From positions 65-64,064 of the forward strand of contig PKDL01000514.1 of assembly GCA_002863065.1 (NCBI GenBank): a DNA stretch of 64,000 nucleotides. Direction: 5' to 3'. This DNA comes from Pseudomonadota bacterium (GTDB taxonomy: Bacteria > Myxococcota_A > UBA9042 > GCA-2863065). Position numbers and translations under genes: made by a program. Below the pieces are notes generated by a model. The model had not been told where the DNA came from and ran no database searches. It saw only the letters and a program-made list of their open reading frames with translations. Positions 11,827-55,502 of this stretch are shown in pieces. How positions within the stretch are numbered: the stretch's first letter is position 1; the number at the start of each line of letters is the position of its first letter.

Positions 11827-11865
11827 GACTACCGCTACAAACCAGACAGGACGCGAAGCACTCGC

Positions 11866-13446: not shown

Positions 13447-13449
13447 CTG

Positions 13450-14226: not shown

Positions 14227-14265
14227 GCCGTCTACATTCTCGCGTTTACAGTCTATAAAGATGGA

Positions 14266-15201: not shown

Positions 15202-15358
15202 ACTGGAACAATACCGTTATGCTGGAATGCTTGTCATGTAGCCACCATCGAATGCAGCTTGTGTTTACATTCTCTAAGGTGCATGTCCCATGATTGAGAA
15301 TAATATTCCTCAGGGAATGACTATCAACACCACCCGAATACAACGGTATAGTTGAGCG

Positions 15359-25052: not shown

Positions 25053-25097
25053 CTCCTGCGATAAGCTTATGCGAACCGGAGCCCGCGGTTATACGTC

Positions 25098-33601: not shown

Positions 33602-34614
33602 GATATGCCTCCGCCTGCTGCGACTGAGTGACCGTCTGTGGCCGGTTCCATGTGACTTGGCTCCGGTAGCTTCCGCAATAACGCGATAAAGAAGCCCCCA
33701 CTATTGTTGTGGTGAGGCCAGATCCGCCATGCATTACGCACATCATCGCGATATGTTTGACCCTCCCAAGCCGCAAGTCCTGGAGAAATCCGAAGTCCGG
33801 CAGGAGGAGCCATAGCGACGACTTCCGCTACATGCGGCCAGATGCTGTTCAGGACACCCTCATTTTCTTCGGGGGCAAAGGTACATGTAGCATACGCGAC
33901 AAGTCCGCCAGGCCGAGTCAGTGCCAACGCACGCCTTAACATCCCTTTCTGGGTCTGTACGACACTTTTCCGATAAGCATCAACGGAATGCCGACGATGC
34001 ATATTGCGCTTTCGAGTGGTCCCTTCACAGGTACATGGCACATCCACCAATACTTTATCGAAACCGTGCCCACCCAAAGCAAATGGAGTCTTGGGCACCG
34101 TCCCGTCCAACCACGTAAATCGGGCGGCATCATGTCTGGTAATGAGCGCTGATGTCACCCCAAGTCTCTCAAGGTTATGCCGTAGCGAGACGAGTCGATC
34201 CCAGCGCCGTTCATTCGCGATAATCAGTCCCTCATCTTGCATTGCCACCGCAAGCTGAGCTGTTTTATTTCCTGGAGCCGCGCATAGATCGAGTACACGC
34301 TCTCCTGGCTGTGCGTTCAGTAACGGAACGGCCCACAAGGCAACCTCTTCTTGACCGTGAATCCAACCCAACCGGTACTCCGGCCATAATCCCGGCTTCA
34401 CCCCAGGCGGTAAACGCCAGGCCAAGGTCTGCCAAGGTATGATCTGAGCTTCAGGCACCCGCGCTGCCACCAGTCTCCGAACGTCATCGGCCGACGCTTT
34501 CAGCGGATTGTGCCAAATCGCTCGCGGCAAAGGCATCTGACAAGCGTGCATAAATGCATCCCAATCATCGACGATCGGTTTGTAGCGTTGGAGACACTTT
34601 TCTAACCAGCTCAC
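33598..34614 (-). CDS. RsmB/RsmF (NOP2/Sun) family rRNA cytosine-C5 methyltransferase
   Basis: SAM motif VLDLCAAPGNKTAQLA; motif IV DVPCTCEGT (catalytic Cys); motif VI YATCTF; GGFFIALLRK end of MTase domain. Confidence 0.85.
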   Translation of the reverse strand: MSWLEKCLQRYKPIVDDWDAFMHACQMPLPRAIWHNPLKASADDVRRLVAARVPEAQIIPWQTLAWRLPPGVKPGLWPEYRLGWIHGQEEVALWAVPLLNAQPGERVLDLCAAPGNKTAQLAVAMQDEGLIIANERRWDRLVSLRHNLERLGVTSALITRHDAARFTWLDGTVPKTPFALGGHGFDKVLVDVPCTCEGTTRKRNMHRRHSVDAYRKSVVQTQKGMLRRALALTRPGGLVAYATCTFAPEENEGVLNSIWPHVAEVVAMAPPAGLRISPGLAAWEGQTYRDDVRNAWRIWPHHNNSGGFFIALLRKLPEPSHMEPATDGHSVAAGGGIS

Positions 34615-34794
34615 GCTGTTCTCCTCTCATGGACAGATTGCTTATTGCCATATCGTCGAGCGAAGCAAAACCGAAGGATAGGTACGACTGCTCGTACAAT
34701 ACTCACAAACGTTATCGTCCCCGGCACCGTACTTTCGCTGTATGGAGTTACACACTGTACATAACAAAACGCCCATCTCCTGCATCATACACGT

Positions 34795-35340
34795 GTGAAT
34801 CGGCGTCGAGTTATCCGAGGAATTGCGGTTTGTGCCACGACTCTCCTAGTCGTATACGCGGGCTATAGAGCCTGGTGGACGCCGGCCATTGGCGGAGAGC
34901 CAACGTCTGGTGAGACTGCTCCCGATTTCACACTGCTCGACCAAAGCGGCACTGCACATACACTCTCTCGGCTCCTGAACCAGGGCCCTGTTGTGGTGAG
35001 CTTTTATCGCGGATACTGGTGACCCAATTGCAGAACTCAGCTCGGAGAGCTGAAACAGCTACAAGAGGCAGTGCAAATTGTCGCCATCAGTGCCGACTCC
35101 GCGAAAGACTCAGCCACATATGCGAAAAATCACGGAATCCGTTTTCCCCTACTCAATGATGGAGCATCGACGGTCATGAGTGCCTATGGCGTCCGTATGG
35201 TCGATACCCCGATTGCAGTACCAGCCACATTTCTAGTCAATACGGAGAGAGTCGTCGTTTGGAGCCACATCGGAGCAACCCAAAGAGACTTTGCAGATAT
35301 TGATGCCTTGCAGGCTGCAATTGCAGGCCTACCGCCGTAG
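34795..35340 (+). CDS. Candidate selenoprotein: membrane-anchored peroxiredoxin-like/TlpA-like thioredoxin-fold protein (AhpC/TSA family) with in-frame TGA (35020-35022) at first redox Cys: FYRGYW-U-PNCR
   Basis: Two same-frame ORFs (34795-35022 and 35071-35340) joined only by one TGA; readthrough gives APDFTLLDQSG...VVSFYRGYW[TGA]PNCRTQLGEL...AISAD...HGIRFPLLND (redoxin fold with UxxC); hairpin tcagctc-gga-gagctga 15 nt downstream of TGA. Confidence 0.6.
35037..35053 (+). ncRNA. Candidate SECIS-like hairpin downstream of in-frame UGA
   Basis: 7-bp stem tcagctc/gagctga with GGA loop beginning 15 nt 3' of the TGA at 35020. Confidence 0.35.
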
Positions 35341-36732
35341 CTATCCTGGCGGTAGGCTCTCCTCATCACACCACCTCACCAAATCGGCGAGACAAAGTCG
35401 GCCATCATGCGCCCAAACCATAGACGGCGTACCCATCGCTCCTGGAGGGCAAATCCTAGTCACACCCAAGCGTGCTAATTGAAGTCGGTCCTCCTCAGAT
35501 ATTCCCGCAACAGCCGCACATTGGAGGTACTGGCGCACCGGATTGATCTGCGCAAATACATCCTCGGCTTTATCTACGGGTACCACTGTCACAAAGCGGT
35601 CTAACGGACCTGGCTTTAGGGTATCGAGCTGCCGAATAACGACAGACGACTGCAAGGTATCGCTCACGAGTCGAGCATCTCCCATGGCGGCCTCTACTCG
35701 GCTAAGTTCGAGCGCACTTCGGAGGGCTGGAGCCTCTTCAGGCAACAAGGCGCGAGCAGGTAGCCTTTTCCGCACCTTGGTCATGGCATTGGATAGCTGC
35801 TCCGCAAACGTTTCCGGCGAGACCTCACCACCGGATTCGACATACACAGCTTGCGGCGCAAGACATGCGTGCTGGTCGAACACGCTAAAATCATATGCCA
35901 ATTTTTCGGCCAGTCCGAGGCTGTCTGACGTGGTCATCACCGATGAGGTAAGCCATGCAAAGCCCATACGATGTCCATGCCAAGTAGCACGAGATCCGTG
36001 CGGAAGCCGTTTTTCGATCTCAGCGAGTGCTGCGTCTCCTCCATACGCAATGAGGTGATCGCTACACTCGAGAAATGCATCACTAAGCTCATGCTTATCC
36101 CGGTCGTAATACACTACTGCCAAGCACTCGCTCAGCTCTGGGTCGATGGCTGCGAGCGATTGTGCGTATAAAGGTAAATATAATGGTTCGCCACGACTCA
36201 CACGCCCCATACAGGCTGCTTTCACAAGAAAGGAGCGCATAACGGTCAGATGTGGCAAGGCGGGAATATTCGCGCTAAAAATGCCGCCGATCAGCTCTGG
36301 ACCGACCGCCGTTGAGCGGCCCTTTGGAGTCTTAATAAAACCATCAAGAGCGAGTCGATTACCCAGTTCCCGGTCAAGTGCTCTACGCATATCTGGACCG
36401 CGAGAACTAATCTGCTCGAGATGAATCGCATGCGACACCATCTCCTCAGAAAATCCCGATAAGACCGAAATCGCCGTCACTGCGTGACTGCGGAGTGGCG
36501 TATCTTCCAACCAGAACCGCGCTACTGAGTCGAGAGCCTCAATAATCTCGTCGATAGACCGACGCGCAAGCACTTCACGACGGCGTGCTTTCAATCGAGC
36601 AGCACATTGCCGTATTTGGGAGACTGTCAGGACGGGAAACCGTACCTCAATCGACCGTCCATCACGTACCGCGGTCATTGCCGTAGTCTCAACCTGAATA
36701 CCTGGTAGCCAAAACGCATCGTAACTAGCCAC
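35341..36732 (-). CDS. LuxC-family acyl-CoA (acyl-protein) reductase
   Basis: ~460 aa; catalytic-Cys block VFDQHACLAPQAVYV as in LuxC; follows LuxE-like gene with overlap. Confidence 0.7.
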   Translation of the reverse strand: MASYDAFWLPGIQVETTAMTAVRDGRSIEVRFPVLTVSQIRQCAARLKARRREVLARRSIDEIIEALDSVARFWLEDTPLRSHAVTAISVLSGFSEEMVSHAIHLEQISSRGPDMRRALDRELGNRLALDGFIKTPKGRSTAVGPELIGGIFSANIPALPHLTVMRSFLVKAACMGRVSRGEPLYLPLYAQSLAAIDPELSECLAVVYYDRDKHELSDAFLECSDHLIAYGGDAALAEIEKRLPHGSRATWHGHRMGFAWLTSSVMTTSDSLGLAEKLAYDFSVFDQHACLAPQAVYVESGGEVSPETFAEQLSNAMTKVRKRLPARALLPEEAPALRSALELSRVEAAMGDARLVSDTLQSSVVIRQLDTLKPGPLDRFVTVVPVDKAEDVFAQINPVRQYLQCAAVAGISEEDRLQLARLGVTRICPPGAMGTPSMVWAHDGRLCLADLVRWCDEESLPPG

Positions 36733-37819
36733 CGGTTTGTCCTCCCAGCATGGCGTCTATCGTGAGCGAACAACCCTTCGACTCAACTCCCTTCGCCCGC
36801 CCCAATACCGTCCAGCCTAGCGCATCTCGTACCCCCAAATCGTCGGTAAGTACCGCACATGGCCGTTCTAAGTTGGCCAGGTCCCAATGACAGAGCAGAC
36901 CCGGAGTACCATGGGCAGCAAACTGCATCGAACGTGGGTCCAGCACCACAGTTCGAGTCCAGGGCGCATTAGACTTGCGGCGCCGCTGAGGATCGCGGTG
37001 TATCAATACATCATCGTAGAATTGACTAGCGAGCTCCGTCATTCCAAGTAAATTGACGCTGAGATGGGCAGGAATTGCCAGTGTCTCGGTAATCGCCCGA
37101 TCCATGTCATTTCGCCGCACCACACGGGACCTTCCCTTGAATCCACCGGCATCCATTAGTCGGCTGCCCTCCGGCAGCTGCAACGTCAGGGATTTAGCGG
37201 CAAGACCATCCAGAAGGTGAACGAACCCGAAGCTAGCACCGATCAATGTGACCGGGATGTTGGCACGGATGCAGTCCGTGAAAGTCTGCATCAAACCATT
37301 TTGGTCCAAACCCTCTGGACCGACGAGAAATCGAGAACCTGGTAAACCGAAATGTTGGATGAGCTGCTCCATTCCCCACGCCATAATCATATGCGGAGCT
37401 AAAGAAGGCGAAGGGGCAAGTACCAGAATGACCGTATTGCGCCCTTCGGGTAAAAAATATTTGCGTGCATTCTGCAGAATACTTTCCGCCATCAGAGTGA
37501 GGCCGGCTTCAGAAAAGTGGGCTTTTGACTTCGGTGCGCCGCTCGTACCGCTCGAAAAAAACGTATGCGCAAGCGCACCGTCATCGAACATGGAATATGA
37601 CTTAAAAGCACGAGCGGGTATCGCGGGGATATCATTCCAGCGCTGAACCCTATCAGGCGTGTTTCCAGTGTAGTCCGCTACCCGACGGACAACCTCAATG
37701 TGCTTATACTGGTACTCGAATACCGCAAGGGCAAGCGCATTGAAGTCTCCAACTTCGGGTGTCCGGATAAATGACACCAGGCGATCGTGCAGGGCATCGT
37801 GTGCGAGTTCCCGAGTCAC
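36725..37819 (-). CDS. LuxE-family acyl-protein synthetase (adenylate-forming)
   Basis: N-terminal FEYQYKHIEVVRRVADYTG...WNDIPAIPARAFK...FSSGTSG typical of LuxE/acyl-protein synthetase. Confidence 0.7.
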   Translation of the reverse strand: MTRELAHDALHDRLVSFIRTPEVGDFNALALAVFEYQYKHIEVVRRVADYTGNTPDRVQRWNDIPAIPARAFKSYSMFDDGALAHTFFSSGTSGAPKSKAHFSEAGLTLMAESILQNARKYFLPEGRNTVILVLAPSPSLAPHMIMAWGMEQLIQHFGLPGSRFLVGPEGLDQNGLMQTFTDCIRANIPVTLIGASFGFVHLLDGLAAKSLTLQLPEGSRLMDAGGFKGRSRVVRRNDMDRAITETLAIPAHLSVNLLGMTELASQFYDDVLIHRDPQRRRKSNAPWTRTVVLDPRSMQFAAHGTPGLLCHWDLANLERPCAVLTDDLGVRDALGWTVLGRAKGVESKGCSLTIDAMLGGQTGG

Positions 37820-38973
37820 TCTAACGGTCTCCTGTGCACCGTGATGGCCTTTGATGTGATGAAGGGCATGAGTTCTCCACGAATATCATCCAGGCTCCGC
37901 CCCGTATCCAATGCATGCGCTTCAAGCGTTGTGCATCCGTCGACCCACGATGGACCTTTGGTGAGTATCAGGGGGACGCAATCCGATGGAAGCACAGGCA
38001 AGTCAATCGGCTTGACCGGTAACACCTCATCGTCTGCCGCGTAGGCAAATAATCTTGGAGCATGGTTGAATTTTCGTTCAAAAGCATAAGCGTAGGCAGA
38101 CAGCCCTGCTGCCACTCCATCACCGAGAGCTACCAATGTCGATGCATAACGCCCAGTCACATCTCCTGCGGCAAACACTCCTGGCTCGCTTGTTCGCATT
38201 AGTCCGTCTGTCGTAAGGAACCCTCTCAAATCGCGGGCCGGCTCCACACCGGTGACGTGCAAGGCTGGTGTTAGTTCGAAGGCATTGTAATCCATCAGAA
38301 TGGCACCACAGTCTATTATTCGCTCACCATGCGCATCACGTACCTTAGCCGCTACCACATGCGTTTCGCCCATAACTTCGAGTAGCTCACCTCCATCCAG
38401 CACCGTGACTGGACCTGCTCCACTGGTATGCGCACGGAGCATAGCCTTCAGATGCGACGTTTTTTCATTACCGACGACGAGAAGACCACGACCAGAAGCG
38501 TCTTTCGCACAGGCCCGGAGTAAGCGTGGAAAATGCTCATATCCTTTGTACGTAATGCGCACCCCTCGCAGATAGTACTCCGACTCATTTGCCAGAGGCC
38601 GGAACCCCGTTGCCAGAATTACAGCCAAGCTCCGCAATGCAGCGCCCGATGCCAGACCTACCTCCAAAAGCGCACCTTTTCGGTGTATCGAAACCACTTG
38701 GTCATGCTGAATTGGTATGCGTAATCTCTCAATATCGGCCATCAATCGATCGGTAAGCTCTTGTCCTTTGTAGGCCCAACCGGGCCCAGAAAGCACACAG
38801 CTCCCCCAACGCAATAAACCGCCGACTGTACCCGATTCGATGATCCGTACTGAGCAAGCCATGGCATGGTAACCCTTCACCCAGCGTACCCGCGTCGCCG
38901 CTGCCAAGCCTGCCGGTCCGGCTCCAACAACGATCACATCGGCATCATAACCGCCTGGCGAGACATCAGCCAT
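37816..38973 (-). CDS. FAD-dependent pyridine-nucleotide oxidoreductase (thioredoxin-reductase-like fold, no CxxC) with C-terminal extension; start likely Met at 38973
   Basis: DADVIVVGAGPAGLAAA FAD-binding GxGxxG; FAAGDVTGR C-terminal FAD motif; second NAD(P) Rossmann LLVVGNEKTS. Confidence 0.7.
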   Translation of the reverse strand: MADVSPGGYDADVIVVGAGPAGLAAATRVRWVKGYHAMACSVRIIESGTVGGLLRWGSCVLSGPGWAYKGQELTDRLMADIERLRIPIQHDQVVSIHRKGALLEVGLASGAALRSLAVILATGFRPLANESEYYLRGVRITYKGYEHFPRLLRACAKDASGRGLLVVGNEKTSHLKAMLRAHTSGAGPVTVLDGGELLEVMGETHVVAAKVRDAHGERIIDCGAILMDYNAFELTPALHVTGVEPARDLRGFLTTDGLMRTSEPGVFAAGDVTGRYASTLVALGDGVAAGLSAYAYAFERKFNHAPRLFAYAADDEVLPVKPIDLPVLPSDCVPLILTKGPSWVDGCTTLEAHALDTGRSLDDIRGELMPFITSKAITVHRRPLE

Positions 38974-39487
38974 CCTGTGAAGCCTTATGCGTCGAAGTCG
39001 AAAGTCCCAACCACTGGGCGAGTCCACCTGCATCACACACACGCTGCCAATGCGGATCCCATGGTTCGATAGGAAATTGCCGACCGCTTACTGTCAATAG
39101 GCGCGATATCAGGTCGAGTCGTACCGCAACATCATCGGAAGGCCGATAACCAGCAAGTGCCGGACAAACCACTGCAGGTAAGCCCAAGTTCATCACGTTC
39201 CGATAGAAAATACGGGCGAAAGATGCGGCTACAATCGCCTGGACCCCGGCCAGTACGAACACGCGCGCCCCCGTTTCACGCGATGAGCCAATCCCGAAGT
39301 TCTCTCCCGCCAATACAATGGCACCGGTAAGGTCGCGCTGCCCATCTGACTCCCTGCCATCAACGGCGCCTAGAAACCCCGACCGAACCTTTTTATCGTC
39401 CAGGCTATAAAAGCGGCTGGGATGTAAAATGTCGGTATTGACGTTATCACCCAGCACGAGTGCTCGCCCCTCGACCAGCGGCTTCAT
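38966..39487 (-). CDS. leuD: 3-isopropylmalate/(homo)aconitate dehydratase small subunit, archaeal type
   Basis: LGDNVNTDILHPSRF swivel-domain motif; 173 aa; ATGA overlap with large subunit. Confidence 0.8.
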   Translation of the reverse strand: MKPLVEGRALVLGDNVNTDILHPSRFYSLDDKKVRSGFLGAVDGRESDGQRDLTGAIVLAGENFGIGSSRETGARVFVLAGVQAIVAASFARIFYRNVMNLGLPAVVCPALAGYRPSDDVAVRLDLISRLLTVSGRQFPIEPWDPHWQRVCDAGGLAQWLGLSTSTHKASQDG

Positions 39488-40761
39488 GAGGTAACCTCCC
39501 GAGGATCGATAATCTGACCCGATACGGCAGCGGCCGCTGCAGTGCGAGCTGATGCAAGCCAGATACGAGCATCATTGCTGCCCATACGACCACGAAAGTT
39601 TCGGTTTGATGTGGATACGCATACGTCTCCAGCTGACAAAATCCCTTTGTCGATACCGCCACATGCTCCGCACGCACTAGCGGTTACCATAGCGCCGGCC
39701 TCGATGAGTATGGAGACAATCCCTTCTTCAACCGCCGCACGATACACCGCGGTTGATGCGGGCGTAACCACCATCCGGATGCCAGACTTGATACGTCGGC
39801 CAGTTAAAATTTCGGCGGCCTGCCTTAAATCTTCTAAACGACCGCCACAGCAAGAGCCGATAAAGACTTGGTCAACATGCTCACCACCGACCATAGATGC
39901 AGGGGTGACGTCAGCGGGACTACCTGGACGAGCTACGGAAGGGACAACTACCGAGAGATCGATGTGCAACGTATCCACATACTCGGTTCCAGGCGTAGAC
40001 CAATCCGCCATATCCTCAGGAATCCCACCATCTCGTTCTATCAGGTATGCCCTCGTGACAGCATCTGGAATAACGAGCCCATTTTTCGCACCACAATCCA
40101 CTGCCATGTTGGTTACAGTACAGCGATCAGCCATCGACAAGCCTTGGTCATGGTCGACGAATTCAAGCGCTCGATAGCCGGCACCACCTTCTCCAAAGTG
40201 CTGCATCATTAGGAGCGCAACGTCTTTGCCTGTTGCCCCCTCGGACAATGTATTCACGCAATCCACGCGTACCGCTTCAGGCAGACGAACCCACACCTTC
40301 CCAGTGGCGAGCAGGCCCAAAATATCCGTCGAACCAAACCCAGCAGCAAACGCACCGACGGCACCTGCCATGGTCGTGTGGCTGTCTGCTCCAGCAATAA
40401 GCGAGCCTGGCAAACACCGAGAGTCTTCAATTAACAACTGGTGGCTAATTCCTCGATAAAAGAGGTCCGTCGAGATACCTTCATCCTCGACGAATTTTAG
40501 ATACTTCTTCAGAATCGCGGCGCGCTCCGCAGTCGCTGGCGGAACGAAATGGTCCGCGGCAAAAAAGCATCGTTCCGGTGCAAACACCCGTTTCCCAGCG
40601 GCGCGTAATCTGTCAATTAGCAACGCGATGGTCGCTTCATGCCCAAGTACAATGTCCGGGCTGACCGCAAAGTACGCACTACCGTCCAGTGTCTCCTCGC
40701 AGTGGGCGAGTAAAATACGATGCGTCAACGGTGCGTCTGACATGGTGGACAGTGTAACCAT
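39484..40761 (-). CDS. leuC: 3-isopropylmalate/(homo)aconitate dehydratase large subunit, archaeal type (aconitase family)
   Basis: Aconitase-family Fe-S ligand blocks (GSCCGGR, MVTASACGACGG), ~425 aa. Confidence 0.8.
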   Translation of the reverse strand: MVTLSTMSDAPLTHRILLAHCEETLDGSAYFAVSPDIVLGHEATIALLIDRLRAAGKRVFAPERCFFAADHFVPPATAERAAILKKYLKFVEDEGISTDLFYRGISHQLLIEDSRCLPGSLIAGADSHTTMAGAVGAFAAGFGSTDILGLLATGKVWVRLPEAVRVDCVNTLSEGATGKDVALLMMQHFGEGGAGYRALEFVDHDQGLSMADRCTVTNMAVDCGAKNGLVIPDAVTRAYLIERDGGIPEDMADWSTPGTEYVDTLHIDLSVVVPSVARPGSPADVTPASMVGGEHVDQVFIGSCCGGRLEDLRQAAEILTGRRIKSGIRMVVTPASTAVYRAAVEEGIVSILIEAGAMVTASACGACGGIDKGILSAGDVCVSTSNRNFRGRMGSNDARIWLASARTAAAAAVSGQIIDPREVTS

Positions 40762-40829
40762 CGTTAGTTCCTACCGTCGAGTGACGCGCTTTGTTTCATC
40801 CCACGGCAGATCACAGGTAGGGTGACGCC

Positions 40830-42932
40830 ATGGGGACACCATCTCGCATTACAATTGTCGCTGGCACCATCGCTATTTTTGCATTAGCGGGCATCGTGTT
40901 GATGCTCCTCGCACTTGTCGGCCGTCCACTCGCTACCGCCGACCTGTGGTTCCACCTCAAAATGGGCGAATGGTACCTGCAGGAAGGACTGTGGCCCCTC
41001 GCTGATCCCATGTTGCATACCAACGGACCGATTACCCCTGTGCAACATGAATGGCTGTTCGGAGTCGCCGTACATACCGTGGAACGCTTTTTCGGATTCC
41101 AGGGATTGAGAATCACCAATATCCTCTCTGTCATACTCATTATCGGGCTCGTGTTCGATGTGTGCCGTCGCCAGGCTGGCAGCATTGCAGAAGCATGCCT
41201 TGGAACTGGAGCATTTGTCATACTTAGTTGGCTACGGCTGATGCAGGACAGACCAGACCGATGGTCTATCGCAAGTCTGCTCATCCTCTATAAGCTGACC
41301 CTGGAACCAGGTAGACGACTGACTGCCCGCTCCACGGCGGCAGTACTGGTTCTTATGCTGTTGTGGGTAAACGCGCATTCACTGTTCGCCATCGGACTGG
41401 CGTTGATCGGAGTGACGATGGTAGCGCGTTTCTTTGAGTCTCAGCTCACAGCCCAACTTTCGAATGTATCGCAAGCAGATAACTCGCTGGTGAAACACAT
41501 GCTATGGCTTCTGATTTTATCCTTCGCCATCACCCTACTCAATCCGCGTGGAATATGGCAGCACCTCACATTTTTCACATCCAGTACCACCACGGCAGTG
41601 TGGGCAGTAACGGACGAATGGCTAGCCTTTTATCCCTGGTCTCCTGGAGCACCCAACAGTCCCGTTCTTCCATGGCTGACATGGCTAGTAGCCGATATTA
41701 CTCTGATAGGTTTCGTCGTTGCTCTAATCGCCGGATATCGACACCTTGTGACCTACCGAAAAACGCATGCGCTGGGGGCACTCAATCCCACACTCATGCT
41801 ACTTGGCATCGTTAGCATCGGAGCCATGTTGGTCAGTTTCCGCTTCTTATGGCTTGGGCTCTTCCCCATCCTCTTTATTTTGCGAGTACGGCGAGAGGTA
41901 TCGGGCGCATCCGCCGTACGCGGGGACCAATGGGTCGGTGTAAGTGCACTCACTGCTGCCGCCGCAATCACCAGTATTTTACTATTCTGGCCAACCGCTT
42001 CTGGTGCATGGTCATTACATATGTCCGATGTTCCTGAGGACACTAGCGAGTACATCAATACTGCGGTCAATCATGCAAGATATGCTGGAGAGGGGGCACA
42101 ATTTCTGAACGATGCCGGAATCGAAGGCAATCTCTTCAATAACTATACCCTTGGCGCATATTTGGGATTCCAATTAGCACCCCAGATACGCACCTTTATC
42201 GATGGTCGCGCCGAGCATTATCCGCCGGAAGTAATGATTGACTACGATGTCATCACTGCGGGCGGAGTACGAAATGATGGGCGACATTACCTGGACATTC
42301 TCGACGACCGAAAAGTCGACCTATTTTATGGCGTTGGCGGGGTCGGATACGGCTACCATGCTGATGACACATTGCACCATGTAGAAGCGGTACCGTGGTG
42401 GGTGCTGATATTTCGCTCCGCTGGGCACGGAATTTGGCTGCGAAAAGACGCAGCTTCAATCGCGACCCTACAACGCATAAAGGCATACTATGACGCCCGG
42501 GGCATTCCATTCTCGGTCGAAGCAGGGCTCGATGTCGGGCAACTCATCCGAGAACACCAGGCATACGCAATCGATATCCGCCTCATACCGCCCATCTATC
42601 CTGCCAGGCTAGCAGTATCACGCGAAGGCGACCCAGATACTCGCCTCAATGCATTGGCTTGGCTCGGGGACCGACACAAAATTGCTGGAGACTACGTAGG
42701 GGCATTAGGGGCATATGGCGAAGTGCTGAAAGTCAATCCAAACGTCGGGTATATCCTTGAGCAGTCTATAACCTGTCTAACAGCACTGGGTCACTTCGAC
42801 GCAGCCATGGATACATTTGCACGGGCGCAACGCGCCGGCGTACCGGATGAGACGTTGAAGCGGCTGGAGCATCACATCGCGAACCAATCCGAGTGGCGAA
42901 CCACCTTGTCGAAGTGGAAGGTCACTCCATGA
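40830..42932 (+). CDS. Large polytopic membrane protein with C-terminal TPR-like domain (GT-C/oligosaccharyl- or mannosyltransferase-like architecture)
   Basis: ~11 predicted TM helices in first 420 aa then soluble helical repeats; no definitive motif. Confidence 0.45.
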   Translation: MGTPSRITIVAGTIAIFALAGIVLMLLALVGRPLATADLWFHLKMGEWYLQEGLWPLADPMLHTNGPITPVQHEWLFGVAVHTVERFFGFQGLRITNILSVILIIGLVFDVCRRQAGSIAEACLGTGAFVILSWLRLMQDRPDRWSIASLLILYKLTLEPGRRLTARSTAAVLVLMLLWVNAHSLFAIGLALIGVTMVARFFESQLTAQLSNVSQADNSLVKHMLWLLILSFAITLLNPRGIWQHLTFFTSSTTTAVWAVTDEWLAFYPWSPGAPNSPVLPWLTWLVADITLIGFVVALIAGYRHLVTYRKTHALGALNPTLMLLGIVSIGAMLVSFRFLWLGLFPILFILRVRREVSGASAVRGDQWVGVSALTAAAAITSILLFWPTASGAWSLHMSDVPEDTSEYINTAVNHARYAGEGAQFLNDAGIEGNLFNNYTLGAYLGFQLAPQIRTFIDGRAEHYPPEVMIDYDVITAGGVRNDGRHYLDILDDRKVDLFYGVGGVGYGYHADDTLHHVEAVPWWVLIFRSAGHGIWLRKDAASIATLQRIKAYYDARGIPFSVEAGLDVGQLIREHQAYAIDIRLIPPIYPARLAVSREGDPDTRLNALAWLGDRHKIAGDYVGALGAYGEVLKVNPNVGYILEQSITCLTALGHFDAAMDTFARAQRAGVPDETLKRLEHHIANQSEWRTTLSKWKVTP

Positions 42933-44467
42933 CATCTTTGGCCGAGAGTCTCAGGCCCACCACCGTACGGCGCAGCCTGTTCTGCACTGTATTTTTACTA
43001 CTGAGCTATTGGGTGCATTTCTGGCCAACATTCCATGCCGCCAATGAGTCTATACGTCTGTACTTCGTTCAGGCTGTGGTTGACTACGGCTCCGCATCTG
43101 TAGATGAACCGCGTCAGCGGTACGGCATGACCAATGTAGACAAAGCTCACTACCAGGGTCATGACTACATGGACAAGGCACCTGGGCTATCACTGCTCGT
43201 AATCCCGGTCTACTGGATCGCAACGCGCATCTTTGGGATGTCGACGGAGTTTCCGGACCTTCCTAACCTGAGTTACCTTCTCTTGCTTTTTGGTGTCGTT
43301 ATTCCAGGTACTTTAGGAGCCTACGCCGTATATCGCGTAATCCAATCTCGAGCAGGGCCCAGCAAAGCGGTAGAAGAGGCAGCCCTATTTGGCGCCATCA
43401 TCGTTGGGCTCGCCTCGCCGTATGCCCTGTACTGCACCCTATTCTTCGGACACGGACCTGCCGCCGCATTAGGCGCAATGAGCATCGCCATGCTCAGCCG
43501 CCAACGATATGTTGCAGGAATGCTCGCGGGTGCCATGGTACTGGTCGATACCCCGGCGGCTGTACTTGCCTTTGGGCTCGGTATCTGGGTTCTCATCCGC
43601 ACGCGTAGCCTAAGAGCAATGATCGAGTTTGGTATTGGTGGAATCCCGCCGATTGCGATTCAACTCGCTTACAACACGTGGCTTTTCGATTCACCGTTCA
43701 CCTTCGCATATGCTCACAAAGCCAGTGGCGATCTCGCGACGATACATGCCCAAGGACTTTTTGGGTTTTCAATACCCACCATTGAAAGACTGTATGGCTT
43801 GTCTTTTGGCTCGGAACGTGGACTCTTTTTTCATGCACCGGTTCTACTCTTGGCCTTTTTTGGGGGGCCTCGGGCTAAACCGTTTCTCGTACTCAGTCTT
43901 CTGTATTTTCTGTGGATCGCAGCATTCGTCGACTGGCAAGCCGGGGCATCCTATGCGCCTCGGCATCTCACTCCGGTCGTACCACTGCTCGCAATAGCTG
44001 CAGCACTTAGCTTGCTCCAGCAGCCAAAGCTACGCGTAATCGCACCCGCATTGCTTGTGTACTCCGCCCTGGTGACATTTTCGATGATCAGTACCTTTCC
44101 GTACGCGATGATCCCTTTTGATGCACCCATCCTAGAACAGGCACTGCCCATGCTAGGGTCCGGTGCGATATCACCCAATATACTTGGCCTAACCAGCTAT
44201 ATGGCCTTATTACCGCCCATAGGACTAGCTGTGCTTTTATGCGGACTTCTCAGCGTACGTCGATCCTTGCTTGCGGGCTTTGTGGGTCTTGCATGCTTTC
44301 TCATGCTAGCCGCCGCTCCCGTTCCTCTCACCACGGCAGCCAAAATAGATAGCCTGACACGCGCCACTGCTTTCAACGGGTATGCGCCCGTCGCAAAGAA
44401 TATCTGTCACTCGCATAACGGCTATCGTTGGATTGAACGCGCATGGGCGTGTGTGCCCAAACGCTAA
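42929..44467 (+). CDS. GT-C fold membrane glycosyltransferase (PMT/ArnT family 39-like)
   Basis: Loop-1 motif YQGHDYMDKAPGLSLLVIPVYWIA; polytopic; ATGA overlap with upstream membrane protein. Confidence 0.5.
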   Translation: MTSLAESLRPTTVRRSLFCTVFLLLSYWVHFWPTFHAANESIRLYFVQAVVDYGSASVDEPRQRYGMTNVDKAHYQGHDYMDKAPGLSLLVIPVYWIATRIFGMSTEFPDLPNLSYLLLLFGVVIPGTLGAYAVYRVIQSRAGPSKAVEEAALFGAIIVGLASPYALYCTLFFGHGPAAALGAMSIAMLSRQRYVAGMLAGAMVLVDTPAAVLAFGLGIWVLIRTRSLRAMIEFGIGGIPPIAIQLAYNTWLFDSPFTFAYAHKASGDLATIHAQGLFGFSIPTIERLYGLSFGSERGLFFHAPVLLLAFFGGPRAKPFLVLSLLYFLWIAAFVDWQAGASYAPRHLTPVVPLLAIAAALSLLQQPKLRVIAPALLVYSALVTFSMISTFPYAMIPFDAPILEQALPMLGSGAISPNILGLTSYMALLPPIGLAVLLCGLLSVRRSLLAGFVGLACFLMLAAAPVPLTTAAKIDSLTRATAFNGYAPVAKNICHSHNGYRWIERAWACVPKR

Positions 44468-44518: not shown

Positions 44519-44876
44519 CAGTCGTGCTCTCAACACCAACGAAAGCCGTGCCCATGGTCCATTCTCCTGCGAAAAAACAAGTGCCAAGTCATATCGGACT
44601 GAGAACCAAGCGGGAAGCCAGATTAACGGGGGCACTTTCCCGAATGCCACCTTCCGCGACTGCATAATTGGACAAGGGTTGAACTACCGTCAGCGTCGGG
44701 AAAAACTGGGGTCTTCCTAAACCACCTCCGTAAGAAACCCAGGCACGAATGCTCGATAAAAACAGGTGTGTGTACGATAACTGCATCGGCGCTTCACGTT
44801 GGTGAATACAAGATGCATCGTCTGCGATACGCAGTGCTGCTCGCATGACTTGGAGATAAAAAAGAGGAGTTCTCTA

Positions 44877-46163
44877 ATGTTTCTTGCAGACTTGACCGAA
44901 GACCTCTTTGGTATGGAACAGTCTCATATAACAAACATTGTCGTCGCCCTCTTCCTTGCGTCCTGTACGACGCCGCCTCCGGTCGATGTACAAGATGAGT
45001 CGCTCAATGATTCGTACACTGCGTATGCTACGCCTCCGAGCCCGCTGGTCCCGAGTACTCCGCTGCAGATTGGGAGTGTGCCGCATGATGCGACGAAGGT
45101 GCAGCGGACGGCACTGCATTGGTTAAATACGTTCCGTATCCGAGCCGGCGTTGCTCCAATCCACCAACTAAACACCTTAAACACTGCTGCCTCATCGCAT
45201 GCGGCCTACGTACTCGCCAATGCAGACCTCTATGCAACTGGCTTGTCTGTACACGAGCAAGACCCAGAGCAGCCGGGCTTCCTTGGAGAACGTTTCTGGG
45301 AGCGGCTCGCAGCCGTAGGTTATAATGGGACCGCATTCCGTGAGGTGGTCGCCTACCATGCTCAACCTGCGACCGCCATCGCACATTGGATGGAAACCAT
45401 CTACCACCGACTGCCTCTGATACATCCCAATGCCCAGCATGTCGGCTATGGTGAAGCACATCTGGTGAATGACCGGGTCAATGTAATGGACGTAGGCGCC
45501 GGCGATGGTTGGTCGCCCCGGATTCCCGGAGGTGTCGCCTGGCCACCGGATGGTGCGACCCAGGTGGCCTTGGCATGGGATGGATTAGAAAGTCCGCAGC
45601 CCTTGTCTCCGCCAAATGGGTTTCCATCTGGACCAGTCATCACGCTTACGTTTCCAAACGGTACGGACTTTGCGATTGCTGAACATCGACTCACAAATAT
45701 GAGTACGGGCGAGATCATCGCGCACGTCTTTGCGGATCAAAACAATGATCCAAACCTCGCAAAAGAAAGCTCAGTTGCCATGTATGCAAATGAACCACTG
45801 CAACCAGCCGCGACGTACTCAGTACAGATGAAGGGCGTAGTCGATGGCGCCGTTTTCGAACGTCAGTGGTCATTTAGTACACGAGCAGTCGCACAGTGCA
45901 GCGTCCAATGGCAGGATTGCGGGGTCGGAAAGGGCTGTTATGCCACTACCGACAATGGAGCCACATGCGCTTGGGCCGGTGCGAGGCGTATGGGGGAGCC
46001 CTGCGAATTCCAGAATGATTGTGCCGGGGGACTGACGTGTGTGTCGTCGGTCTGTCGTGTGTACTGCTTGGTCGATGGCGGAGATGGGGGCTGCGATACC
46101 AAATGTGATGCCGGGTGGTCAGCTCTGAATGTTCCGGGAGGCCATGGCGTCTGTAAGCTTTGA
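44877..46163 (+). CDS. Secreted lipoprotein with CAP/SCP (PR-1-like) domain and C-terminal Cys-rich module
   Basis: RBS AAGAGGAG 7 nt upstream; lipobox LFLASC; CAP motifs HTQVVW-like (HAAYVL...GENL..., HYTQ-like HWMETIYHRLPLIHPNAQHVGYG); C-terminal CxxC-rich. Confidence 0.6.
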   Translation: MFLADLTEDLFGMEQSHITNIVVALFLASCTTPPPVDVQDESLNDSYTAYATPPSPLVPSTPLQIGSVPHDATKVQRTALHWLNTFRIRAGVAPIHQLNTLNTAASSHAAYVLANADLYATGLSVHEQDPEQPGFLGERFWERLAAVGYNGTAFREVVAYHAQPATAIAHWMETIYHRLPLIHPNAQHVGYGEAHLVNDRVNVMDVGAGDGWSPRIPGGVAWPPDGATQVALAWDGLESPQPLSPPNGFPSGPVITLTFPNGTDFAIAEHRLTNMSTGEIIAHVFADQNNDPNLAKESSVAMYANEPLQPAATYSVQMKGVVDGAVFERQWSFSTRAVAQCSVQWQDCGVGKGCYATTDNGATCAWAGARRMGEPCEFQNDCAGGLTCVSSVCRVYCLVDGGDGGCDTKCDAGWSALNVPGGHGVCKL

Positions 46164-46169
46164 GCCATC

Positions 46170-46424
46170 TCACCCAGCGAACTCCCATGACCGCATAATA
46201 GATTTCTTAGCCCAATCCACCAGTGTCTTCTCGAGGCCCTTTACGCGACCAAACATGCGTGTGCCATTAATTCGCGTCTCCGTCAGCGATAGCAATCGAG
46301 CACGTGTCTTATCCGATAGCCGGCCGTAGAGAGCTCGCGGTCTCCGCTTCATATCTTCTGCAGAGCTCACAAATCCGTTTTGCCGTTTTGGGGACCAGTT
46401 CAATCGGCGAACATTCGAATGCAT
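46170..46424 (-). CDS. Small basic hypothetical protein (may be non-coding)
   Basis: ORF only; no motif; lies in the xerC upstream region. Confidence 0.2.
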   Translation of the reverse strand: MHSNVRRLNWSPKRQNGFVSSAEDMKRRPRALYGRLSDKTRARLLSLTETRINGTRMFGRVKGLEKTLVDWAKKSIMRSWEFAG

Positions 46425-46467
46425 ACGTTTTGATGCGTTCTCGGTCTCAGAGAGCTACAGTTAGTGC

Positions 46468-47415
46468 GTGGAGCGCTTTCCTCTAGATACTTTTTTGGTG
46501 CACCTAACGGACGTTCGAGATCTCTCGAAACATACGCGACGTGCCTACGCCGTCGATTTGCGCGATTTCCAAGGCTATCTCGAAGCGCAGGGCATCACGT
46601 GGAACGCGGTAACTAAGGACGAAGTCCGCCAGTATGTTCACTCCATGTACCGTGAGTTGAAACCGGCGAGTATGTCACGCCGGATGGCTACGCTACGAAC
46701 CTTCTACCGCTGGGCAGTCGCAACCGGGAGAATCGAGGCCAGTCCATGCGAAGGAGTCCGAACGCCCAAAATCGGGCATCGAAATCCGCAGGTCCTCATG
46801 CCAGAGGAAGTAGACCGACTTCTGACATCAATCGACGATGCAACCGATACATTCGCTCTTCGAGATGCGGCACTGTTAGAGGTCTGCTATGGCGGTGGAC
46901 TGCGGGTGTCAGAGCTGGTGGGCATCGACGTATCGCACTTAGATACCGAGCAGCGGCAAGTGTTAGTGCGCGGGAAAGGCAATAAGGAACGAATCGTGCC
47001 GTTAGGACGAAAAGCAGTCGATGCAGTAGAGTCCTGGATGCATACCCGAGCAGGACTGATTACCGAGTCCACGGAAACAGCATTATTCGTGAATCGGTTC
47101 GGGCGCCGCCTATCGGCGAGGTCGGTTCGAACAATTTTATCGAAGCGCCACTTTGACTCTGGGGGTTGGGGCGGCGTACACCCACATGCCTTGCGCCATT
47201 CTTGCGCTACCCATTTGTTGGAGGAGGGGGCGGAACTTCGCCACATCCAAGAATTTTTGGGGCACGAAAGTCTGGCGACAACTCAAAAGTACACGCAGGT
47301 AAGCCTGGAACAATTGATGCGTACATATGATGAGGCTCATCCGAGAGCACAAGCGGTTACATCCGCAGATAACGCCGCCCCGAACGCCGAGTACAATGAC
47401 CACCACGACGCGTAG
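46468..47415 (+). CDS. xerC: Tyrosine site-specific recombinase XerC/XerD family
   Basis: Catalytic HALRHSCATHLLEEGAELRHIQEFLGHESLATTQKYTQV (R-H-R-Y pentad region); conserved xerC-hslV-hslU gene order. Confidence 0.8.
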   Translation: MERFPLDTFLVHLTDVRDLSKHTRRAYAVDLRDFQGYLEAQGITWNAVTKDEVRQYVHSMYRELKPASMSRRMATLRTFYRWAVATGRIEASPCEGVRTPKIGHRNPQVLMPEEVDRLLTSIDDATDTFALRDAALLEVCYGGGLRVSELVGIDVSHLDTEQRQVLVRGKGNKERIVPLGRKAVDAVESWMHTRAGLITESTETALFVNRFGRRLSARSVRTILSKRHFDSGGWGGVHPHALRHSCATHLLEEGAELRHIQEFLGHESLATTQKYTQVSLEQLMRTYDEAHPRAQAVTSADNAAPNAEYNDHHDA

Positions 47416-48015: not shown

Positions 48016-49367
48016 GCGACCTTGAGGATATCCCGGTCGAACTTTCCTTCACCCCGCGAGAGCTCGTAGGCGAACTCGACCGGTATATCGTTGGCCAACG
48101 CGATGCAAAGAAAGCAGTTGCGGTCGCCTTACGAAACCGTTGGAGAAGGCGTCAAGTCAAGCCGCCCTTACGCGACGAAATCACCCCAAAGAACATCATC
48201 ATGATTGGACCCACGGGTGTCGGTAAAACGGAAATTGCTAGACGGCTCGCCCGACTGGCGCGTGCTCCATTTGTGAAAGTTGAAGCAAGTAAATTTACAG
48301 AAGTAGGATATGTCGGCCGAGACGTCGAATCCATGATCCGCGATCTCGTCGAGAATGCCGTCGCCCTGGTGAAAAAGGAAGAACGCCAGGCGGTGTCGGA
48401 CCGAGCACGTGCGAATGCGATCGAACGCGTCCTCGATGTCCTCGTTCCTGAGGAACCACAAGGTTTCGAGGTCGGCGAGAAACGCACGAGCACCCGCGAC
48501 AAGTTTAGAGACATGCTAGAATCCGGTGCACTCGACGAACGTCGCATTGAAGTCGAACGCCAAGAGAAAGCGTTCCCGAGCCTTGAAATCTTCTCAAGTC
48601 AAGGCGGTGTCGAAGAGATGGGAATGCAGTTTCAGGACATGTTCGGCAATCTCTTTCCCAAAAAAACGAAACGGAGAGAGGTCCTGATACCGGAAGCACT
48701 CGAACAATTCACCGAACAAGAGGCAGAAAAACTCATCGACCAGGAACGCGTTGTTCGACTGGCACGACTCAGAGCAGAACAGACCGGTGTAGTATTCATC
48801 GACGAGGTCGATAAGGTTGCTGGGCGCGAGTCTGGAAAAGGACCTGATGTCTCACGCGAAGGCGTTCAGCGCGATCTTTTGCCGATCATAGAAGGCTCAA
48901 CAGTGAGTACAAAGTATGGTTCCGTAGCGACAGACCACATGCTCTTCATCGCCGCTGGCGCATTTCACGTAGCAAACGTGAATGATCTTATTCCCGAACT
49001 CCAGGGACGTTTCCCCATTCGAGTGCAACTACAATCACTAGGTGAAGACGATCTGCTGCGTATTCTGACGGAACCAGAGAATAGTCTCCCTAAGCAATAT
49101 GCGGCACTTCTCGGTACCGAAGGGTTGAATGTTCAATTCGACAGCGATGCCTTGGAATCGATTGCTACCGTTGCGGCCTCTGTCAATCAACGTGCAGAGA
49201 ACATTGGAGCAAGACGCTTGCATACTGTGATGGAAAAGTTGTTGGAAGATGTGAGTTTCCGCGCGCCAGAGATGCCCAATGAACCGTTCGTGGTCACCAA
49301 AGCCTTTGTGGAGTCCCAGCTGTCCGACGTGGTCGAGGACCAAGACTTGGAGAAGTACATCCTGTGA
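48012..49367 (+). CDS. hslU: ATP-dependent protease ATPase subunit HslU
   Basis: [32 protein letters not shown]; Walker [16 protein letters not shown]; I-domain; ATGA overlap with hslV. Confidence 0.95.
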
Positions 49368-50632
49368 GCAGCTTCGATACATCACCTACTGGGAATTTCG
49401 TGATTGGGGAACACGACCAAGATGCGCTCGTCGCTATCGGTCGCCGCACGATGTCCAAGAATTTTCGCCAACAACCGCTCGTTGCGGTGAAAGGTGAGGG
49501 CATGTACATCTGGGACCGAGCAGGTAAACGGTACCTAGACTTCATCGGTGGCATCGCTGTCAACGGCCTTGGTCACAGCCACCCCCGACTTGTAGAGGCC
49601 GGTTCGCGTCAACTTGCACAGCTGTGGCACGTATCTAACCTATACTTTAACGAACCGCAGATTCTGTTATCCGAACGTCTCTCTGAGGCGTTTGTCGACG
49701 GACGAGTGTACTTGTGTAACAGCGGAGCGGAAGCAAACGAAGCAGCCCTGAAATTTGCACGACGCTATGGAAGTATCACGCGAAAGGAACCGAATAGAAC
49801 CAACTTCATTACCTTCAAGAAGTCTTTTCATGGCCGCACCATGTTCGCTTTGTCTGCGACAGCACAGCCAAAGTACCACAAAGGATTTGAACCGGTAGTT
49901 CCCGGCTTCCGATACGCCATGTTCAATGACATCGACTCGGTAGCAGCGCTGATGGATGACACCGTCTGTGGTGTATTAGTAGAGCCAATACAGGCAGAGG
50001 GCGGTATCATCATGCCCGAGACTGGCTTTCTGAAAGACCTCAGGCAATTGACTGAGGATAATGGCGCACTCCTGCTCTTGGATGAGGTCCAGTGCGGTGT
50101 CGGCCGCACAGGCTCATTCTTCGCGTTCGAACAGGAAGGCATTCGGCCAGATGTCGTCACCTTAGCTAAAGCATTGGGTGGTGGACTTCCGATCGGCGCA
50201 ATGATCACCACAGAAGAAGTAGCCGACGGGTTCCAGCCAGGGTCACATGGCTCGACATTCGCTGGTAATGCGGTAGCCGCACGAGTAGCGCTCGAAGTGC
50301 TGAATGTCCTCGAAGATGACCAACTCATCTCTCACGTGAGGACTGCCGGTGCTTATTTCATGCAACAGCTGGATCGGCTCGCGAAGAAATATGACTTCGT
50401 AGAGGGTGCCCGTGGTCGTGGGTTCATCGTTGGCCTTGGATTCAACAAGGAGTATGCGCCGGAAGCGATGTTGCGCAGCATGGAAAGAGGGTTGCTGATT
50501 AACAGGCTCAACCCCCACACGCTGCGCTTCCTTCCCCCGTTGATTGCACAGCACTCGCATATCGACGCAGCCCTTGACATACTCGCGGATGTATTTGAAG
50601 ACCTGAAGCGTAACCCGCCGAACTTGGAGTAA
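49364..50632 (+). CDS. argD: Class-III PLP aminotransferase, acetylornithine/succinyl-diaminopimelate aminotransferase-like (start possibly at Met 49454)
   Basis: [48 protein letters not shown] (PLP Lys). Confidence 0.75.
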
Positions 50633-55250: not shown

Positions 55251-55502
55251 GCTGCTACTCCGAAATCCGCTGATACAAACCGGCGCCTGCGCGCGAGTAC
55301 CTTGACACCCCGTGTGCTCACTGCTAACCCAAACGTCTCGCAGAGGCAACCGGTGGTACGGTCGCCAGCATAACCCCAATGAGCACACTGTGCTGCCATT
55401 GTATTACTATTTGCCGTGGCTGACACCACAGTGCGATGTGTCTTGCTCCTCTTACGATTCCAAATGCGACAGAACGCAACAAGATAGCGGCGAGGTAAGT
55501 GC

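Follow-up and report, generated by a model that had tools for sequence, protein, structure and literature searches.

Five minus-strand genes at positions 35341-40761 of a 64,000-nt stretch of contig PKDL01000514.1 (assembly GCA_002863065.1; the whole stretch is called the window below) encode the large and small subunits of an aconitase-family hydro-lyase (AcnL and AcnS), a flavoprotein, and homologues of LuxE and LuxC. Comparison with related genomes suggested that, on balance, these genes make up the core of a specialised-metabolism pathway that is conserved but uncharacterised, and that they do not serve leucine biosynthesis. The probable task of the pathway is the conversion of a branched di-acid to an aldehyde, with no link to light production. 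A preliminary description of this DNA had preferred an uncharacterised route that activates and reduces a carboxylate with the help of a hydro-lyase and a flavoenzyme; this view was supported by the adjacency of AcnS to LuxE-LuxC in 40 of 43 related loci and by the conservation of the cysteines through which LuxE and LuxC relay a thioester.

Operon structure and protein families

The ORF listing and translations gave exactly the coordinates of the preliminary description (Table 1). The overlaps of 4-8 nt that it had claimed were also seen when the junctions were read directly: 4 nt (ATGA) between AcnL and AcnS, 8 nt between AcnS and the flavoprotein, 4 nt (GTGA) between the flavoprotein and LuxE, and 8 nt between LuxE and LuxC. 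A purine-rich Shine-Dalgarno-like motif (GGGAGG, AAGG, AGGAG, GGGAGG) stood before every start codon. All five genes belong to a single operon in which translation is coupled. The longest ORF of the flavoprotein started with GTG at 39042; the ATG at 38973, which had been chosen earlier, fitted the N-termini of 34 homologues. Pfam searches returned the domains expected for all five proteins: Aconitase (2.6e-82), Aconitase_C (3.2e-14), Pyr_redox_2 (2.7e-14), LuxE (1.8e-19) and LuxC (3.2e-77). The GC content of the window was about 54%.

Upstream of AcnL, the sole non-coding gap before the operon (68 bp) was followed by a divergent gene for a 700-aa membrane protein with tetratricopeptide repeats (TPR), starting at 40830. 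The same divergent arrangement was kept in the related loci L085 and L086. At the other boundary, a convergent redoxin-like gene ended two bases before the LuxC stop codon. A promoter scan of 34400-41200 detected no sigma-70 consensus, and the promoter was placed by position only; terminator-like sites in this interval occurred at chance level only, and the scan did not inform the operon boundaries. An Rfam scan of the whole window detected no RNA family, hence no riboswitch or leader. When nearly all ORFs of at least 110 aa in the window were searched with Pfam, no luciferase was found, as had been stated before, and no LuxD, leuA/leuB-type or other HMGL-like gene. The LuxE protein was 100% identical to 'hypothetical protein VX223_12005' of a Myxococcota metagenome-assembled genome (MAG).

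Table 1. Features of the operon, with the evidence used for each (AF2, AlphaFold2; ALDH, aldehyde dehydrogenase; TrxR, thioredoxin reductase).
Feature	Position	Strand	Evidence
AcnL, aconitase-family Fe-S hydro-lyase large subunit, archaeal LeuC/HacA-like, 425 aa	39484..40761	-	Pfam, NCBIfam
AcnS, aconitase-family small subunit with family-specific substrate loop, 173 aa	38966..39487	-	Pfam, loop alignment
Flavoprotein, TrxR-fold FAD protein with C-terminal domain of about 80 aa, 385 aa	37816..38973	-	Pfam, AF2, Foldseek
LuxE-type adenylating acyl-protein synthetase, 364 aa	36725..37819	-	Pfam, 7xc6_E alignment
LuxC-type acyl-thioester reductase, ALDH superfamily, 463 aa	35341..36732	-	Pfam, 7xc6_A alignment
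Divergent intergenic region of 68 bp 5' of AcnL, presumed operon promoter region	40762..40829	.	position

The AcnL/AcnS pair showed all hallmarks of the aconitase superfamily, namely the Fe-S Cys ligands, the Asp-His pairs and GSSRE. The AcnL translation contained the cluster-ligand motifs IGSCCGG and ACGACGG (three Cys ligands, 4Fe-4S) as well as AADH and GADSHT, and the swivel-domain motif GIGSSRE was intact in AcnS. AcnL cleared subfamily models only (score/cut-off: PRK00402, 436.8/385; hacA_fam, 422/386; IPMI_arch, 418/410); it failed the equivalog models of LeuC (LEU2, 335.6 vs 610.65; leuC, 212.9 vs 560.25) and HacA_Meth (346 vs 550). AcnS stayed below the cut-off of the subfamily LEUD_arch (97/109) and missed the equivalogs of LeuD (leud, 90.8 vs 245.85; leuD, 35.8 vs 116.25) and HacB (82-90 vs 230). 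Its best PDB matches were MJ1277 (3vba, 3.1e-20) and MJ1271 (2pkp, 8.3e-20) of Methanocaldococcus jannaschii. The AcnS loop LHPSRFY-SLD was one residue shorter than the YLVY loop of M. jannaschii LeuD or the YLRT loop of HacB and had a different sequence. Its consensus, LHPSxF[YF]-SLD, was found in more than 50 cluster orthologues, in variants with and without the flavoprotein alike; it contained no conserved basic residue, and the homoaconitase Arg was missing. In LeuD/HacB, YLVY/YLRT is the loop that determines substrate specificity, and the Arg of YLRT binds the distal carboxylate. The AcnS loop thus suggests a new substrate that differs from those of the leucine and homoaconitase types. 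The archaeal isopropylmalate/citramalate isomerase MJ1277 and the homoaconitase MJ1271 are heterodimeric Fe-S hydro-lyases with the same catalytic motifs; however, they carry the loop YLVY/YLRT, AcnL/AcnS fall below their equivalog cut-offs, and their partners are LeuA/LeuB or AksA/AksF, whereas those of AcnL/AcnS are LuxE/LuxC and the flavoprotein.

The only PDB relative of LuxE was the LuxE of Photobacterium phosphoreum (7xc6_E, 1.7e-14), and LuxC matched 7xc6_A at 1.5e-11. Adenylating LuxE enzymes have an acylatable Cys about 10 residues from the C-terminus; here the C-terminal SKGC350SLT of LuxE aligned with the acyl-Cys motif QKGCSLS of 7xc6_E, and G349-C350-S351 was invariant in 21 homologues. 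In LuxC, FDQHACLAPQ aligned with YDQQACFSTQ of 7xc6_A, the site of the catalytic Cys (DQxAC). In the LuxCE relay, the thioester is carried on the LuxE Cys and the LuxC Cys (PMC12041015). Because both relay cysteines were conserved, the pair is likely to reduce a carboxylate to an aldehyde at the expense of ATP. Fungal Lys2 (alpha-aminoadipate reductase) and bacterial carboxylate reductases (CAR), which make semialdehydes and are functional analogues, share with LuxE/LuxC the ATP activation, the thioester intermediate and the NADPH reduction to an aldehyde; they are single multidomain, phosphopantetheinylated proteins (adenylation, peptidyl carrier and reductase domains), whereas LuxE/LuxC are two proteins with a Cys-to-Cys relay.

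The luminous LuxC-LuxE of P. phosphoreum (PDB 7XC6) has the same two-protein architecture, with the LuxE GCS acyl-Cys, the LuxC DQxAC Cys and adjacent, overlapping genes. Its similarity to the operon pair was remote only (56.6 and 47 bits). Luminous systems contain luxA, luxB and luxD, whereas the operon pair lacks them and is tied to aconitase-family subunits and usually to a synthase resembling homocitrate synthase (HCS). Neither luciferase nor luxD was among the conserved ORF families of 78 related loci. Against the NCBIfam equivalogs, LuxE scored 59 (cut-off of the long-chain LuxE model, 550) and LuxC 75.1 (cut-off 750). Membership in the bioluminescence Lux reductases was therefore rejected: the Cys motifs agreed, but the equivalog scores and the luxABD linkage did not. 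A long-chain fatty acid is an improbable substrate for the pair.

The flavoprotein had been described as lacking a CxxC, and alignment with homologues confirmed this: GVRITYKGYEHF stands where TrxR has GVSxCAxCDG, with GVRITFKGY at the CxxC site. No conserved Cys pair was found among 35 family members. The second Rossmann motif was degenerate, VVGNxKT (VVGNEKT here) replacing GxGxxG, and no family member matched PF00070. The FAD-domain motifs VVGAGPAG and AAGDVTGR were conserved in the family. The AF2 model (pLDDT 92.5) showed a two-domain TrxR-type fold. Foldseek against the PDB gave TrxR/AhpF as the best matches (about 22% identity, TM about 0.45); the top 50 matches were all TrxR, AhpF or TrxR-type ferredoxin-NADP reductases, and the structure search thus identified a generic TrxR fold only. 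A function as thioredoxin reductase was excluded by the TRX_reduct score (75.3 vs the cut-off of 343.45) and the lack of both CxxC and GxGxxG/A. The family was sharply split from ordinary TrxRs (at least 182 bits vs at most 61 bits) and small: with 1.84 billion representatives searched at E<=1e-30, it comprised only about 100 clusters at 50% identity. Classical NAD(P)H binding is improbable for the flavoprotein. Five charged residues (R125, E130, K143, D228 and E233) were invariant in the family and could bind a polycarboxylate. The ferredoxin-dependent FFTR (6gna/6gnc) and the Gloeobacter DTR (5j60) resemble the flavoprotein in combining the two-domain TrxR fold with a degenerate NADPH motif (Foldseek E about 1e-19), but they keep the CxxC dithiol and reduce thioredoxin, whereas the flavoprotein family has no conserved Cys pair and carries the extra C-terminal domain.

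The gene cluster in other genomes

Around LuxE homologues of 45-58% identity, we found a recurring neighbourhood of seven genes: a B12-binding radical SAM protein (B12-rSAM, about 565 aa, TIGR04190-like), an HMGL-like/HCS_D2 synthase (about 400 aa), AcnL, AcnS, the flavoprotein, LuxE and LuxC. The five genes of the preliminary description stood, but its five-gene operon is not the usual form, which has seven genes and is led by the B12-rSAM and the HCS-like synthase. A survey of one genome per GTDB species yielded 75 loci, all in MAGs, from Myxococcota, Gemmatimonadota, Thermodesulfobacteriota, Syntrophorhabdus, Blastocatellia/Chloracidobacterium, Kofleriaceae, Binatia and Elusimicrobia. The order (rSAM)-HMGL-AcnL-AcnS-flavoprotein-LuxE-LuxC recurred in MAGs of at least six phyla. 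Because this order recurred in dozens of species-level genomes of several phyla, the arrangement is, as judged from gene order, far beyond chance. Literature searches found no description of LuxE/LuxC with an aconitase, radical SAM, homocitrate synthase or isopropylmalate cluster. As a pathway, the cluster is uncharacterised and combines known enzyme families; it is rare but has a wide distribution.

Gene contents were counted by tblastn and de novo ORF clustering in 43 loci that were non-redundant and had 6.5 kb or more of sequence 5' of LuxE. LuxC lay 3' of LuxE in all 43; AcnS adjoined LuxE-LuxC in the 40 loci mentioned above, AcnL was found in 38, the HMGL-like synthase in 37, the flavoprotein in 35 and the radical SAM protein in 28. 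A U32-family protein was present in 14 loci, in anaerobic lineages. The three loci without AcnS were L021, L068 and L070. The preliminary description had asked whether the LuxC-LuxE-flavoprotein trio occurs without leuCD in relatives, which would have spoken for coincidental packing; this was not the case. The sole close exception was L021 on contig CAYFPX010000008.1 (which also holds L088), where the modules were dispersed over about 45 kb (rSAM-synthase at about 27 kb, AcnL-AcnS at about 36 kb and flavoprotein-LuxE-LuxC at about 68 kb), and AcnL-AcnS was still present on the same contig, 30 kb from the trio. The AcnL-AcnS module of this contig was followed by HEAT-repeat, PP-binding and AMP-binding genes. 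The LuxE-LuxC pairs of L068 and L070, from Desulfobulbaceae-type MAGs, were distant (37% identity) and had a lipid-like context. Both (L070, 7910-13208; L068, 7766-20249) had a DUF4070-type B12-rSAM gene upstream and a short-chain dehydrogenase/reductase (SDR) gene downstream; L068 also contained genes for a FabA-like dehydratase, a U32 protein, a second B12-rSAM, an MMPL transporter and an amine-oxidase/phytoene-desaturase-like flavoprotein. These two belong to a different, lipid-like, uncharacterised cluster. L089 had a four-gene form, AcnS-flavoprotein-LuxE-LuxC, with no AcnL adjoining, and a TMEM260_N-type membrane protein gene near the cluster.

A variant in Acidobacteriota and Kofleriaceae added a HisC-family aminotransferase that passed the hisC cut-off, FAD monooxygenase/halogenase-like proteins and a Methyltransf_2 O-methyltransferase, as well as a solute-binding-protein homologue and a Na/H exchanger; a few Acidobacteriota loci retained the flavoprotein. 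The cluster synthases were closest to the HCS of Sulfolobus acidocaldarius (6ktq, 6.5e-59) and to NifV-type models, with an LREGEQ motif; DCTLREGEQ and GASVRA mark the cluster type. They had Ser/Thr where the S. acidocaldarius HCS has His and the isopropylmalate synthase (IPMS) of Neisseria meningitidis has Leu, a position that we take to contact the substrate side chain. The cultured Nostocales cyanobacterium HT-58-2 (CP019636, about 901-906 kb; L087, locus 10001-16552) carried the same subtype of the HCS-like synthase-AcnL-AcnS module, which shared the loop and pocket motifs of the cluster. In this strain the synthase had a GASVRC motif and the AcnS loop read LHPASYF-SLN, and the module was accompanied by genes for a P450, a UbiE-like methyltransferase and a Methyltransf_2 O-methyltransferase; LuxE/LuxC were missing.

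The window contained the last five of the seven cluster genes; tblastn with the L001 proteins as queries detected no copy of the rSAM or synthase genes in the 64 kb. Its five proteins were 54-68% identical to those of L001, with AcnL at 68%, in the same order and each in the matching ORF family. The closest syntenic relatives, L085 and L086, had the same five-gene form, with flavoproteins of 78-81% identity, and shared with the window the divergent membrane protein, the redoxin, an RsmF-like methyltransferase and ffh. Because L085 and L086 share these genes and this synteny, the five-gene form is a stable trait of this lineage of Myxococcota rather than a product of misassembly. In this lineage the synthase may be encoded elsewhere or replaced; the former is plausible because the modules are demonstrably dispersed in another genome. 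In a protein-database search with the L001 synthase, none of the best 120 matches showed the prefix VX223; most matches were unnamed, and the MAG may be incomplete.

A proposed route from a di-acid to an aldehyde

The sequences show the structure of the operon, the conservation of the cluster, intact catalytic motifs in all five proteins, specificity features peculiar to the families and the lack of luciferase, leuA and leuB; which acid is used, what the flavoprotein does, how the steps follow one another and what becomes of the aldehyde are inferred. The HCS-like enzyme, which adjoins the cluster in most relatives, often with the B12-rSAM, and would here be encoded elsewhere or replaced, would condense acetyl-CoA with a 2-oxoacid to a 2-substituted malate-type hydroxy-di-acid. 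AcnL/AcnS would then dehydrate or isomerise this product, and the flavoprotein would act on the ene- or hydroxy-di-acid so formed in a redox reaction, which would be reduction of the C=C bond or a LeuB-like oxidation. LuxE would adenylate one carboxylate and hold the thioester on its C-terminal Cys350; the acyl group would pass to the catalytic Cys of LuxC and be reduced with NAD(P)H to a free aldehyde (semialdehyde). Since the synthase pocket has Ser/Thr and the AcnS loop lacks the homoaconitase Arg, the substrate is probably derived neither from 2-oxoisovalerate nor from 2-oxoglutarate. A bulky 2-oxoacid, possibly an aromatic one, is weakly suggested by the small residue in the synthase pocket, the richness of the loop in aromatic residues and the aminotransferase of HisC type.

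The closest systems in logic are the chain-extension modules HphABCD (homophenylalanine), AksADEF (coenzyme B) and Pms/Pmi with the B12-rSAM PhpK (phosphinothricin). Such modules combine an HMGL-family condensing enzyme and an aconitase-family isomerase in a dedicated cluster, some with a B12-rSAM and an aminotransferase. Unlike them, the cluster described here has no LeuB/IDH-type dehydrogenase, and its LuxE/LuxC step has no counterpart in the modules. A phosphonate-type pathway by analogy with Pms/Pmi/PhpK was rejected, as neither a phosphoenolpyruvate mutase nor a further gene family was conserved around the clusters (ORF clustering of the 78 loci).

Several points weigh against the proposed pathway. 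Co-transcription is deduced from the gene overlaps only. The condensing enzyme, the expected source of the AcnLS substrate, and the rSAM are missing from the window. A LeuB-type dehydrogenase was found in no locus, and a flavoprotein standing in for LeuB is a guess, while the Acidobacteriota and Kofleriaceae variant has neither flavoprotein nor radical SAM. The function of the cluster is itself a proposal from sequence. Finally, the distant LuxE-LuxC pairs sit with FabA-like, SDR and MMPL genes, which makes a lipid substrate conceivable.

The preliminary description had offered the alternative that leuCD are housekeeping genes with no functional tie to the flavoprotein, LuxE and LuxC genes of their operon. 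AcnL does clear the subfamily-level LeuC/HacA models; however, the equivalog cut-offs are missed widely and AcnS falls under even a subfamily cut-off, the distinct substrate loop occurs in all cluster orthologues, and neither leuA nor leuB lies in the window. The association of AcnS with LuxE-LuxC is kept across phyla, and the partner synthase of the relatives is HCS-like, dedicated to the cluster and different from IPMS in its pocket residue. These observations make the housekeeping explanation extremely unlikely. An HCS-like synthase closest to 6ktq and NifV-type models, with LREGEQ, would also suit an alpha-aminoadipate-type route, in which HCS and homoaconitase make 2-oxoadipate or aminoadipate and LuxE/LuxC act as Lys2 does, giving the 6-semialdehyde and then lysine, pipecolate or related compounds. 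The chemistry parallels Lys2, and a HisC-like aminotransferase heads some clusters. All cluster synthases, however, have Ser/Thr in place of the His of the S. acidocaldarius enzyme, and the AcnS loop has neither the Arg of YLRT nor any conserved basic residue. Moreover, no homoisocitrate dehydrogenase was found anywhere, and no aminotransferase belongs to the flavoprotein-containing clusters or to that of the window. The homoaconitase/lysine hypothesis was weakened by the loop and the pocket residue, and we regard it as very improbable.

The distant Desulfobulbaceae pairs, with their B12-rSAM, FabA-like, SDR, U32, MMPL and amine-oxidase-like genes, raise the question of a true fatty-acid reductase for ether lipids, wax esters or other lipids, for which AcnLS and the synthase would supply branched, 2-oxoacid-derived primers and the rSAM would modify the chain. 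The mechanism would be that of LuxCE, and the host phyla make ether and branched lipids. On the other hand, ORF clustering of the 78 loci showed no conserved acyl carrier protein, ketoacyl synthase, acyltransferase or glycerol-lipid genes; a short, polar acid is favoured by the tight coupling to AcnLS and the HCS-like synthase, and LuxE scored far below the long-chain equivalog cut-off. We consider a lipid product unlikely. Homologation of an aromatic or bulky 2-oxoacid is somewhat easier to accommodate, although it too is a minority possibility: an arylpyruvate and acetyl-CoA would give an arylmethyl-malate or -maleate and then an aldehyde, which would be tailored or cyclised with O2-dependent or O2-independent enzymes according to the host. 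The HisC family also serves aromatic amino acids, and the small Ser/Thr of the synthase pocket and the aromatic-rich AcnS loop suit a bulky substituent. Acidobacterial clusters contain FAD monooxygenase/halogenase-like proteins and Methyltransf_2, the clusters of anaerobes contain U32 and B12-rSAM proteins, and HT-58-2 joins the synthase-AcnLS module to a P450 and two methyltransferases. This support is indirect, and neither an aromatic-specific enzyme nor a tailoring gene is present in the window.

A bolder version of this idea, which we offer as speculation with little chance of being right in full, is that the HCS-like synthase-AcnLS-LuxE/LuxC core represents an unrecognised route by which an aromatic or bulky 2-oxoacid is homologated and reduced to an aldehyde, then cyclised or tailored into a redox-active or signalling molecule. 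Parallel O2-dependent (FAD monooxygenases, O-methyltransferase) and O2-independent (hydroxylase-like U32 proteins, B12-rSAM, flavoprotein) versions would exist, and the window would hold the minimal acid-to-aldehyde engine. Ubiquinone biosynthesis, with its aerobic and anaerobic versions, offers an analogue.

Neighbouring genes and wider meaning

The redoxin/AhpC-TSA-like gene that converges on LuxC (34795-35340, plus strand) contained an in-frame TGA at 35020-35022, within FYRGYW-TGA-PNC, giving UxxC instead of CxxC. The TGA was at the identical position in L085 (56% identity) and L086 (49%), with protein similarity on both sides, and a 7-bp hairpin (35037-35053; fold z-score -2.5) lay about 15 nt downstream of it. 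The gene product is probably a selenocysteine-containing thioredoxin-fold protein; no tRNA-Sec was found in the window. A second redoxin gene (22700-23290), with no in-frame stop, followed a minus-strand pair at 23337-26531, in which an MBOAT acyltransferase gene (477 aa) adjoined a gene for a GDSL-like lipase/acylhydrolase domain protein (571 aa); this pairing resembles polysaccharide O-acetylation systems. On the divergent side of the operon were two large multi-pass membrane proteins, the 700-aa protein with its C-terminal TPR (40830-44467, plus strand) and a 524-aa protein (44799-47415, plus strand) with no Pfam match, followed by a CAP-domain protein and an XerC/D-type integrase; the membrane protein, the CAP protein and the integrase were syntenic in L085 and L086.

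A stand-alone NAD_binding_4 protein of the 'male sterility'/thioester-reductase type (355 aa) was encoded at 53567-54634 on the minus strand, 13 kb from the operon. Its gene overlapped two others, coaE (dephospho-CoA kinase, 54618-55388) and a T2SSE ATPase gene, the latter at its 3' end. The protein is a potential second acyl-thioester or aldehyde-forming reductase. A class-III (ArgD-like) aminotransferase gene lay at 49364-50632 (plus strand), 9 kb from the operon. It shared an ORF family with aminotransferase genes directly 5' of LuxE-like genes that were very distant (31-34% identity), in L076, L078, L079 and L081-L083, the hosts of which are Myxococcaceae, Polyangiales and other deltaproteobacterial MAGs; an HMG-CoA-lyase-type HMGL protein was also present in L076, L079, L082 and L083. 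The link is probably an unrelated, family-level similarity that is not tied to the operon.

To our knowledge, the biochemistry of LuxC and LuxE has been studied almost solely in their role as aldehyde suppliers for bacterial luciferase. Here, a LuxCE-type Cys-relay reductase is hard-wired to enzymes of the leucine/lysine chain-extension type and to a new TrxR-like flavoprotein family that lacks the working parts of TrxR, in an arrangement known only from metagenomes and spread over at least six phyla. The labels 'LeuC/LeuD', 'thioredoxin reductase' and 'isopropylmalate synthase' on proteins of this cluster are probably wrong. The strain HT-58-2 could offer an experimentally tractable entry to the shared intermediate. 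If the pathway were solved, it would reveal a new class of metabolites from uncultured marine and anoxic bacteria, assign functions to the rare flavoprotein family and to the TIGR04190-like B12-rSAM family, and provide a compact, two-protein, phosphopantetheine-free carboxylate reductase for polar acids that would be useful in biocatalysis.

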